A stretch of 64,000 nt of DNA from Hyalangium versicolor (GTDB taxonomy: Bacteria; Myxococcota; Myxococcia; Myxococcales; Myxococcaceae): contig NZ_JAHXBF010000014.1 in the NCBI RefSeq assembly GCF_020103695.1, forward strand, positions 300,297-364,296. The letters run 5' to 3'. Both the position numbers and the translations under genes were made by a program. Shown here piece after piece: positions 34,380 through 36,143 of this stretch. Each line of letters opens with the position of its first letter. Position 1 is the first letter of the stretch. A model generated the notes under the pieces. That model was not told where the DNA came from. It ran no database searches and saw only the letters and a list, made by a program, of their open reading frames with translations.

Positions 34380-36143
34380 CTACTCCACGGGCTCGCAGAC
34401 CACCGTGGCCTCGAGCCGCTCGATGCTGCCACCCACGTAGATGGTGCCCGAGGTGGGCGTGGCGTCCCGATGCGTCCGCCCCGTAGCGACCCGCACGTGG
34501 CTCGTCTGTGTCAGCACGCCGTTGGTCGGATCGAACCCCTTCCACCCCCGGTCCGGCAGGTACACCTGCGCCCACGCATGCGAGGCCTCGGCCTGCGCCG
34601 TGTTTGCGTGCTTGGGGCCTGTCCAAATGTAGCCGCACGTGTAGCGCGCCGGCAGCCCCAGCAGCCGCGCCAGGCACATGAACAGGTTCGTGAAGTCCTG
34701 ACACACGCCGCGCCGCATCGAGTACACCTCGAACGGCGACGTGTTCACGTGCGTCACACCCTGCGTGTACCGGTACTCCTTGAAGATGCTGTAGTTCAGA
34801 TCCAGCAACGTATCGAGCAGATCGAAATCGTTGCGGCGCGCGAAGCTCATCGCGTACTCGAGCAACTCCTCCAGCTCGCTGTCCGGCAACGGCGGCGGCG
34901 GGAGGAACGGTTGAAGCATCACCTGCTGCGACGGCATCCACAGCACCGGGAACGTCGTGCGGATATGCGGCGTGCGGTGGCCCAGCGGATCCGTGTCGCG
35001 CAGCTCCACCCGCGAGCGCGCCTCGATCACCAGTTCCGTGTAAGGCGTGTCGATGAGCGCCTTGCGCACATAGTTGCCGAAGATGTCCTCGTACTCCTCC
35101 TGCATCACCCCCGGAGACATCCGCAGCTCATGCGAGAGCAGCGTCTGCAACCGATCGTGCACCGGCGTCAGCCGCAGCACGTGAGAACTCCGCTCCACGG
35201 GCCGCTCGTAGCGGTAGACCGTACGGTGCCTCACCTCCATCACCCGCACCGGAGCCACGGGAGGCCGGCTCAAACGGCTCCGAGCCGCCAGCTCCTCCGC
35301 CGTGCCACTGGGGTCCTGCCCCGGCTCACGCCTCAACTCGGGAGGCAGCACCTCCGCGCGGACGGCCCCCTGCCTCACCACCACCAGCGCACCCGGCGGA
35401 ACCGCCTTCCAGTTCGCCTTCATCTCCGCCGTGCGAGACTCGATGGGCTGCGTGCTGAAGATGACGCCCTTGCGGCTCTTGGCGCCCCGCTTCGTGAAGT
35501 CCACCTCCACGTCTTCATCGCCGATGATCAGCCGATCGTAGGGAGGCGCCACCCGCCACAGCCAGGCTTCCTTCTCCTTCTCTCGGTCCGCGTAGACGCA
35601 GAGATCAAGCCCATCCGTGAAGACCACCGTGAGCGGCCCCTGGTCGTTCATCTCCGCCAACCAGGCGCGCAGCCGCTCCAGATCGATGTCTCCCAGCCGC
35701 TTCCAACCGTTGGACTGCACCCAGCCCAGCAGCGCGCAGAACACGCCCTCCGAATCGCTGGAGCCCACCGGCATGAACGCCGGCTCCGCGGGGATCTTCG
35801 CGGCCTGACGCAGCGTGCCACTGTGTCCGAACAGCCAATCCCGGCCGCCAAAGCTGCGGCAGAAGGGCTGGGTGTTGGCGTCCGTGATGGCGCCCCAACT
35901 CGCGGTGCGGATGTGCAGCAGGAGCAGCGAGGACTCGAGGTGCTCCCAGGCCTTCATGAGCTCGCTGCGGATGCTGCCTCCCGGAGGAGGCCGAGGCTCC
36001 TTGAGCACTGCCGCGGAGGGACCGCTGCCCGGGTAGTAGGCCACCCCCCAACCGTCGGGGGGCTTATGACCGGGAGCCAGGCACCGCAGATCCAGACTGG
36101 GCGCGAGCTCTCCCTCGAACGACATCGCAAGCAGGTTCGGCAT
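34380..36143 (-). CDS. Fusion protein: N-terminal class-II glutamine-amidotransferase-like domain (nucleophile Cys replaced) + bacterial transglutaminase (Bact_transglu_N + transglutaminase core)
   Basis: N-terminus MPNLLAMSFEG... resembles YafJ-type GATase (MCELLGMS) but has Pro where Cys2 should be. Bact_transglu_N segment VRHRTVYRYERPVERSSHVLRLTP. Core GVCQDFTNLFMCLARLLGLPARYTCGY...SHAWAQVYLPDRGWKGFDPTNG. Confidence 0.75.
   Translation of the reverse strand: MPNLLAMSFEGELAPSLDLRCLAPGHKPPDGWGVAYYPGSGPSAAVLKEPRPPPGGSIRSELMKAWEHLESSLLLLHIRTASWGAITDANTQPFCRSFGGRDWLFGHSGTLRQAAKIPAEPAFMPVGSSDSEGVFCALLGWVQSNGWKRLGDIDLERLRAWLAEMNDQGPLTVVFTDGLDLCVYADREKEKEAWLWRVAPPYDRLIIGDEDVEVDFTKRGAKSRKGVIFSTQPIESRTAEMKANWKAVPPGALVVVRQGAVRAEVLPPELRREPGQDPSGTAEELAARSRLSRPPVAPVRVMEVRHRTVYRYERPVERSSHVLRLTPVHDRLQTLLSHELRMSPGVMQEEYEDIFGNYVRKALIDTPYTELVIEARSRVELRDTDPLGHRTPHIRTTFPVLWMPSQQVMLQPFLPPPPLPDSELEELLEYAMSFARRNDFDLLDTLLDLNYSIFKEYRYTQGVTHVNTSPFEVYSMRRGVCQDFTNLFMCLARLLGLPARYTCGYIWTGPKHANTAQAEASHAWAQVYLPDRGWKGFDPTNGVLTQTSHVRVATGRTHRDATPTSGTIYVGGSIERLEATVVCEPVE

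Follow-up and report, generated by a model that had tools for sequence, protein, structure and literature searches.

A GATase_4-like domain without its canonical nucleophile, fused to a transglutaminase-like protein in a myxobacterial ATP-grasp/Alpha-E operon

The fusion gene and its start codon

The window analysed here is a stretch of 64,000 nucleotides (nt) from the genome of Hyalangium versicolor (RefSeq assembly GCF_020103695.1, contig NZ_JAHXBF010000014.1, positions 300,297 to 364,296 of the forward strand), and all coordinates below are those of the window. On its minus strand, at 34380..36143, the list of open reading frames (ORFs) contains a gene with an ATG start and a product of 587 aa, in which a GATase_4-like domain is followed by a linker, a Bact_transglu_N domain and a transglutaminase core (Transglut_core). 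It is the third gene of a cassette that begins with an ATP-grasp and an Alpha-E gene. By sequence comparison, the GATase_4-like domain has lost both catalytic elements of its family, the Cys nucleophile and the Asn of the oxyanion hole, and has retained both residues that anchor the ligand, an Arg and an Asp. The G+C content at third codon positions (GC3) is 0.88, which is usual for genuine genes of this high-GC window.

The protein begins with MPNLLAMSF, and the N-terminal peptide as read from the ATG is (M)PNLLAMSFEGELAPSLDLR. Codon 2 (CCG, 36138..36140, minus strand) encodes Pro at the position that alignment with relatives assigns to the Cys nucleophile. An earlier note on this DNA, made from its letters alone, had read the same MPNLLAMS with Pro at position 2, and the reading stands: among the best 120 of 1364 matches, taken here as orthologues, not one has Cys at this position. 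The same note allowed that the annotated start might be wrong and that an in-frame start further upstream might supply a Met-Cys terminus. This is excluded. The TAG stop of the Alpha-E gene (36156..36158, minus strand) lies in frame with the fusion gene, four codons 5' of its ATG, so that the in-frame sequence runs ...AQ* SSAS M. As there is no ATG, GTG or TTG among the four intervening codons (AGT TCC GCG TCC), an upstream start giving Met-Cys is impossible, and this alternative was rejected.

A later start can be set aside as well. When the window is compared with the loci of Sorangium (L001) and of an Anaeromyxobacteraceae metagenome-assembled genome (MAG; L003), codons 2 to 6 vary only synonymously (CCG/CCC, AAC/AAT, CTG/CTC and CTT/CTC/CTG), and the DNA just 5' of the start is unrelated among the three. 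Translation thus starts at the annotated ATG, and Pro2 to Ala6 are under selection at the level of the protein; a start at Met7 was rejected because of this conservation. Judged from these comparisons, the annotated start and Pro2 are genuine and under selection. An ORF antisense to the gene (34362..36170, plus strand, 602 aa) has a GC content of 0.87 at first and 0.66 at third codon positions; its composition mirrors that of the fusion gene, and it was read as the shadow ORF of a high-GC gene.

The N-terminal domain and its pocket

The N-terminal region had been likened in the earlier note to class-II amidotransferases of the YafJ type, and every comparison agrees with this. Residues 1-273 (35325..36143, minus strand) match Pfam family GATase_4 (PF13230) over profile positions 1-265 of 272, with an expectation value (E) of 7.6e-67 and 225.5 bits against a cut-off of 23, and phmmer aligns the domain to PDB entry 1te5, the solved YafJ-like protein PA1307 (E 3.5e-19). 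The match to the NCBIfam model of EgtC stays below threshold (27 bits against a cut-off of 219), and the fusion protein is thus not an EgtC orthologue.

An AlphaFold2 model calculated from 102 sequences of the two clades of fusion proteins described below reached a mean predicted local distance difference score (pLDDT) of 90.1 and a predicted template modelling score (pTM) of 0.91; from 30 close orthologues the pLDDT was 57. A long strand, residues 4-13, opens the modelled chain, a feature of N-terminal nucleophile (Ntn) hydrolases. The pTM indicates that the arrangement of the N- and C-terminal halves is confidently predicted to be fixed. When the N-terminal half was compared with the PDB by Foldseek, it matched 1te5 with a template modelling (TM) score of 0.84, and EgtC (4zfj, 4zfk, 4zfl), PurF and GlmS at E <= 1e-6; a weaker match was to beta-lactam synthetase (1jgt/1m1z, E ~5e-4). 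By sequence and by predicted fold, the N-terminal domain is genuinely homologous to class-II (Ntn) GATase_4 proteins.

The pocket was examined by aligning the domain with 21 standalone GATase_4 proteins and mapping the profile of that alignment onto E. coli PurF (1ecb). It is well established for PurF and GlmS (Kim et al. 1996 and Isupov et al. 1996, both cited in PMC6376114) that Cys1 is the nucleophile; in PurF, Asn101 and Gly102 make up the oxyanion hole, Arg73 holds the alpha-carboxylate of glutamine and Asp127 holds its alpha-amino group. All 21 standalone relatives start with Met-Cys where the fusion has Met-Pro, and 20 of them have His-Asn-Gly where the fusion has His107-Ser108-Gly109. 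Codon 108 (AGT, 35820..35822, minus strand) thus encodes Ser where PurF has Asn101 of the oxyanion hole, giving HSG and not HNG, while Gly109 maps to PurF Gly102. The counterparts of PurF Arg73 and Asp127 are both kept, as Arg79 (35907..35909, minus strand) and Asp130 (35754..35756, minus strand). The pattern agrees with a direct alignment of 1te5 and the window protein, in which HNGQL pairs with HSGTL, HIRQA with HIRTA and GETDSE with GSSDSE. The loss of the oxyanion Asn had gone unremarked in the earlier note.

The word dead applies here to the canonical Cys-Ntn mechanism only: glutaminase or gamma-glutamyl-amidase activity by that mechanism is predicted from the sequence to be absent. As both defining features of active class-II amidotransferases, the Cys and the oxyanion Asn, are missing, "class II glutamine amidotransferase", as the protein is named in databases, is probably a misleading label.

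Conservation of the Cys-less N-terminus

The 1364 matches mentioned above came from a search of a collection of 5.8 billion proteins. All of the best 120 have the three-domain architecture, and the named organisms among them all belong to the Myxococcota: Hyalangium gracile (87% identical), Cystobacter, Corallococcus, Melittangium, Sorangium, Minicystis, Chondromyces, Polyangium and Anaeromyxobacteraceae. Their N-termini read MPNLLAMSF or a near variant, MPNLLAMSFEG being almost invariant; 106 begin with Met-Pro, nine with Met-Leu, three with Met-Pro followed by Lys, Gln or Arg at residue 3, and two have been called from Met7. A comparison of orthologues had been proposed as a check on the class-II assignment, and it bears the assignment out, as the orthologues share both the homology to class-II amidotransferases and the Cys-less N-terminus.

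A scan of one genome per species gave 26 loci of the clade whose match extends to the N-terminus. An ATG or GTG stands immediately before Pro in 25 of them, and before Leu in the remaining one, from Corallococcus terminator (L007). The oxyanion site reads HSG, HAG or HGG throughout, in 30 aligned orthologues as in the 26 genome loci, and the equivalents of Arg79 and Asp130 are kept in all 26 loci. Invariant in 30 diverse orthologues are M1, S8-F9-E10-G11, D30-G31-W32-G33, H77, R79, N90-T91-Q92-P93-F94, H107, G109, G127-S128, D130 and E132. Both losses, of the Cys nucleophile and of the oxyanion Asn, are therefore fixed, as far as these alignments reach, across a large and mostly myxobacterial clade in which the remainder of the pocket is strongly constrained.

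Mean identity to the window protein among orthologues is 63% in the N-terminal domain, 63% in Bact_transglu_N, 76% in the transglutaminase core and 25% in the poorly conserved inter-domain linker (residues 266-299, 35247..35348, minus strand; pLDDT 68 in blocks 271-290). The difference between 63% in the N-terminal domain and 25% in the linker indicates that purifying selection maintains the N-terminal domain, which is not in decay.

A sister clade with Ser or Thr

A HMMER search with the N-terminal domain against 1.84 billion cluster representatives returned 1204 matches, which fall into three classes: standalone proteins of about 260 aa with MCELLG and HNG, fusions like that of the window, and a second set of transglutaminase fusions, with only 25-45% identity in the N-terminal domain. 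A profile search for this second set found 1292 proteins. The residue aligned to Cys or Pro is Ser or Thr in 114 of 114 (76 Ser, 38 Thr), and HNG is retained in 98 of 115. In 80 of the 114, the Ser or Thr is preceded by 2-58 residues, with the conserved motifs REHQ[LM]|TRLLAMSFD, I(T)|SDILALSFD and IPPLT|SDILAISLD. Genome loci (L005, L006, L029, L044-L046, L057; proteins P0288-P0399) agree on this pattern of Ser or Thr plus extension. By its sequence the set resembles self-processing Ser/Thr Ntn hydrolases made with a propeptide, and would be a lineage of such enzymes, apparently undescribed, that descends from Cys amidotransferases. Unlike these proteins, the window protein has no Ser or Thr at the nucleophile position and no N-terminal extension.

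The hosts of the second set are Myxococcota MAGs, Planctomycetes, Melainabacteria/Obscuribacterales, Nitrospinota, Verrucomicrobia, one Waddliaceae MAG and, among the Alphaproteobacteria, Asticcacaulis endophyticus and Algimonas arctica. Some of its loci are degenerate (L042, L047, L048, L049, L053, L056), with Gly, Lys, His or Arg for the Ser or Thr and in some cases without the Arg, Asn or Asp, which implies that the N-terminal domain has been inactivated more than once.

In a neighbour-joining tree of N-terminal domains, which is rough and without support values, all fusions group together, separate from the standalone Cys2 proteins, and the Pro/Leu and Ser/Thr groups are sister clades. A single origin of the fusion is thereby suggested, with Cys in use in none of the sampled descendants. 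Nor is the fusion a rarity: two profile or sequence searches each gave more than 1,200 database proteins, in sets that may overlap.

The transglutaminase half

The C-terminal half comprises a Bact_transglu_N domain (residues 303-380, 35004..35237, minus strand; PF08379, E 1.1e-22) and a transglutaminase-like core (residues 444-539, 34527..34814, minus strand; PF01841, E 6.6e-20). The earlier note had ascribed a full Cys-His-Asp core to the fusion partner, and the three residues are indeed present. On the minus strand, alignment to 3isr and to TgpA (6g49) places them at Cys481 in GVCQDF (34701-34703), His522 in SHAW (34578-34580) and Asp538 in FDPTN (34530-34532). The triad is invariant in the 30 aligned orthologues and in the 102 sequences of both clades. 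By Foldseek the C-terminal half matches the putative cysteine protease 3isr of Cytophaga hutchinsonii (E 2.5e-18, TM 0.72) and also TgpA. Domain order, triad and fold, which were all the features tried, are each those of a transglutaminase-like cysteine enzyme (COG1305).

Standalone transglutaminases about 50% identical to the C-terminal half fill the same operon position in Gemmatimonadota (L068, L069), and the fusion is therefore the transglutaminase of the triad itself with a domain added. The earlier note had remarked that the fusion is not the usual standalone transglutaminase of the ATP-grasp/Alpha-E triad, and it does take the place of that protein, in the same slot after Alpha-E.

The operon and its surroundings

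The cassette begins with a gene for a circularly permuted ATP-grasp protein (37136..38641, minus strand; CP_ATPgrasp_2, E 1.3e-159; CP_ATPgrasp_1, E 1.2e-139), followed by the Alpha-E gene (36156..37139, minus strand; PF04168, E 3.7e-75). Alpha-E probably starts with the ATG at 37139, in an ATGA (37136-37139) shared with the stop of the ATP-grasp gene. The start given mechanically in the ORF list, a GTG at 37328 (ORF 36156-37328), is less likely: it would overlap the ATP-grasp gene by 190 nt, and the Pfam domain starts only at residue 64. The 4-nt overlap and the gene order are the same in Sorangium and in the Anaeromyxobacteraceae MAG. From the Alpha-E stop to the ATG of the fusion gene there are 12 nt, and from this spacing the three genes look translationally coupled.

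The order ATP-grasp, Alpha-E, fusion recurs in Sorangium, Anaeromyxobacteraceae, Corallococcus, many MAGs and most genome loci of both clades, and a large transglutaminase-DUF2126 protein is sometimes encoded near the cassette in orthologous loci. No gene of the proteasome family (Anbu) adjoins the cassette in the window or in four distinct orthologous contexts annotated with Pfam, and a search with the Anbu reference found none downstream of the standalone transglutaminases in 12 loci. PADLOC defence models matched neither the cassette nor the two downstream genes that were included. A scan for sigma-54 promoters gave no site near the operon, and the window-wide count at <=2 mismatches was not above chance. 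Perfect matches to the sigma-54 consensus TGGCAC-N5-TTGCW do occur at 13539-13554 (plus strand) and 21935-21950 (minus strand), both away from the cassette.

Outside the three genes, the surroundings show no conservation among the window, Sorangium and Anaeromyxobacteraceae, and were therefore left out of the system. One flank in the window carries a TetR regulator and a divergent gene for a short-chain dehydrogenase/reductase; the other carries a DUF6968 ORF, a homologue of the major vault protein, a DJ-1/PfpI protein and an OPT transporter. The DUF6968 ORF (33466-33891, minus strand, Pfam E 4.1e-19) lies, with about 490 nt that hold no convincing gene, in the stretch 33300-34380 between the fusion and vault genes, where GC3 is 0.62-0.72 as against 0.85-0.93 in neighbouring genes; this stretch may be foreign or non-coding DNA. 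The vault gene (31023-33308, minus strand, 761 aa, GC3 0.87) has the same orientation as the fusion gene and follows it at a distance of about 1 kb. Its product, a bacterial protein homologous to the major vault protein of eukaryotes, has Pfam matches to MVP_shoulder (E 4.5e-45), Vault_2, Vault, Vault_3 and Vault_4, and the gene is unlinked to the cassette in Sorangium and Anaeromyxobacteraceae. Further on, at 26574-29168 (minus strand), are the OPT-family oligopeptide transporter (E 2e-61) and the DJ-1/PfpI-ThiJ-like protein (E 2.7e-27), which do not stand beside the cassette elsewhere. Elsewhere in the window, an ORF at 46582-47982 (minus strand) matches selenocysteine synthase SelA (Pfam E 2.1e-144), and the organism thus probably makes selenoproteins.

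Discussion

The ATP-grasp/Alpha-E/transglutaminase system was reportedly defined by Iyer et al. in 2009. For the ATP-grasp/Alpha-E/transglutaminase/Anbu operon, no function, substrate or product has been established (PMC6376114, PMC5666114). The ATP-grasp protein of the Anbu operon hydrolyses ATP, no complexes were detected, and peptidase or amidase activity of Anbu was not detected in vitro (PMC6376114). A role in peptide synthesis or tagging, credited to Iyer et al. 2009, has been proposed for the operon (PMC5666114, PMC3597751). In Burkholderia cenocepacia the cluster depends strongly on NtrC and sigma-54 under nitrogen limitation (PMC5491218), and in marine metagenomes the domains of the operon co-vary with domains of urea metabolism (PMC3597751). 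Outside Iyer et al. 2009, which may describe it, full-text literature searches found nothing on a fusion of GATase_4 to a transglutaminase; an amidotransferase fusion is not mentioned in PMC6376114, PMC5666114, PMC3597751 or PMC5491218, or by Valas & Bourne 2008.

Compared with YafJ, PA1307 (1te5) and EgtC (4zfj-4zfl), the window domain shares the family PF13230, the predicted fold, the motifs DGWG, HIR, NT[HQ]PF and G[ST]TDSE, and the Arg and Asp. It differs in having Pro for Cys2 and Ser for the Asn of HNG, in its fusion to a transglutaminase-like protein, and in its place in an ATP-grasp/Alpha-E operon, whereas YafJ and EgtC are standalone or belong to an ergothioneine cluster. The C-terminal 290 aa have the two Pfam domains, triad, fold and post-Alpha-E position of the standalone transglutaminase of ATP-grasp/Alpha-E operons with or without Anbu (3isr), to which the window protein adds an N-terminal pseudo-amidotransferase domain of 290 aa. 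With the Ser/Thr sister fusions it shares the three-domain architecture and the operon partners, but the window clade is without the Ser or Thr nucleophile, the HNG and the N-terminal extension. Anbu is likewise a protein of Ntn fold encoded with the same ATP-grasp/Alpha-E/transglutaminase trio; it belongs, however, to the proteasome family, has Thr1, forms large multimers and is encoded by a separate gene downstream of the transglutaminase. The window domain, a member of the amidotransferase family, is joined to the N-terminal side of the transglutaminase, and its nucleophile position carries neither Thr, Ser nor Cys.

The earlier note had offered a catalytically dead domain, perhaps one that binds glutamine or an amide, as the alternative to a wrong start. 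Of this proposal, the inactivity is favoured for the canonical mechanism, and the binding, to which the loss of the Cys with retention of Arg and Asp points, can be put forward conditionally. The interpretation we lean towards, with somewhat better than even confidence, is that the N-terminal domain is a pseudoenzyme which still binds a glutamine-, glutamate- or gamma-glutamyl-type group and serves the transglutaminase-like domain. The domain would no longer hydrolyse an amide, and its pocket would still hold such a group. Cleavage of gamma-glutamyl amides is a reaction of GATase_4 enzymes, EgtC among them. In one version of this scheme the N-terminal domain may recognise the substrate and present a gamma-glutamyl or isopeptide-type linkage, which the ATP-grasp ligase would make via an acyl-phosphate intermediate, to Cys481-His522-Asp538; in another it may act as a glutamine sensor that gates the transglutaminase-like domain.

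The sister clade probably retains Ntn hydrolase activity, to judge from its Ser or Thr, its Asn-Gly and its propeptide-like extension, and the window form would then be read most simply as a catalytically inactivated relative of it. A dead domain of this kind has a precedent among the fold matches, beta-lactam synthetase (1jgt/1m1z). The N-domain of this enzyme lacks Cys1, and those of beta-lactam and carbapenam synthetase are, like the window domain, non-glutaminase modules of amidotransferase fold without Cys that stand beside an active domain. They differ in belonging to an AsnB-like subfamily, with an ATP-pyrophosphatase synthetase as partner and in another pathway.

Four points weigh against the pseudoenzyme interpretation. 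The notion of a gamma-glutamyl-type linkage is drawn solely from analogy with the family. The equivalent of the Arg varies among the putatively active sister fusions (KAK and KVR variants), which makes conservation of the Arg by itself a weaker argument for glutamine-type binding. For a minority of the fusions, neither partner, ATP-grasp or Alpha-E, is encoded within 6 kb. Finally, excision of the initiator Met would bare an N-terminal Pro, a residue that is catalytic in other enzyme families.

It is rather unlikely, in our judgement, that the domain is only a structural or oligomerisation scaffold with no small-molecule or peptide ligand. The loss of both the nucleophile and the oxyanion Asn would suit a scaffold, as would the fixed two-domain assembly implied by the pTM and the fold match to the beta-lactam synthetase N-domain, which lacks Cys1; this domain and the inactive proteasome subunits are precedents for such a role. 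Some sister-clade loci, among them L042, L047 and L049, have degenerated further in this direction and have lost the Arg, Asp and Asn too. A scaffold does not explain, however, why in the window clade the anchors and the motifs DGWG, HIRxA, NTQPF, HxG and GS[ST]D[ST]E are invariant across lineages that are only ~60% identical, or why MPNLLAMSFEG is nearly so.

That the domain is still catalytic through a non-canonical residue, either Pro1 after Met excision or Cys21 or Ser8, appears improbable. Met-Pro is a substrate of methionine aminopeptidase, and an N-terminal Pro acts as nucleophile or base in the tautomerase superfamily and in Fpg/Nei. The very high conservation of Pro2, the start codon directly before Pro in all but one of the 26 loci, and the invariance of Cys21 and Ser8 in the clade would fit such a catalyst. 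Against it, Leu2 is found in nine of the 120 orthologues and in the Corallococcus terminator locus, nested within the Pro clade, and a protein with Leu2 would keep its Met and have no amine catalyst. The oxyanion Asn is lost as well, and Ser8, being common also in standalone Cys2 enzymes, is not new in the clade. We know of no Ntn hydrolase with a Pro nucleophile.

An artefact is refuted, be it a misplaced start, an error of sequencing or a pseudogene in decay: gene callers do sometimes disagree, as the two orthologues called from Met7 attest, but the in-frame stop, an N-terminus identical in >100 orthologues, the synonymous changes in codons 2-6 beside unrelated upstream DNA, the GC3, the intact ORF and the identity of the N-terminal domain all speak against it.

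Returning to the pseudoenzyme with a retained pocket, a wider proposal can be attached to it, which is speculative and which we hold to be unlikely as a whole: the fusions might be a lineage of amidotransferase-fold Ntn proteins that left Cys chemistry, with the Ser/Thr branch, as self-processing Ntn hydrolases, filling the role that Anbu has in other operons of this type, and with the window branch using the same pocket as a non-catalytic reader of a mark of gamma-glutamyl or glutamine type.

The Cys-less fusion is not confined to one genome, and the operon of ATP-grasp, Alpha-E and transglutaminase, with or without Anbu, is widespread in bacteria. Thousands of entries of the clade that bear the name "class II glutamine amidotransferase" are almost certainly not amidotransferases by the canonical mechanism. 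The Ser/Thr and Pro/Leu clades form a natural pair, the former probably active and the latter probably inactive. A fused domain that keeps its ligand anchors but not its catalytic residues provides a testable clue to what the system handles, and if the wider proposal of a reader were to hold, the specificity of its pocket would reveal the long-unknown product of the operon, such as a tag or metabolite of gamma-glutamyl or isopeptide type with a link to nitrogen status.

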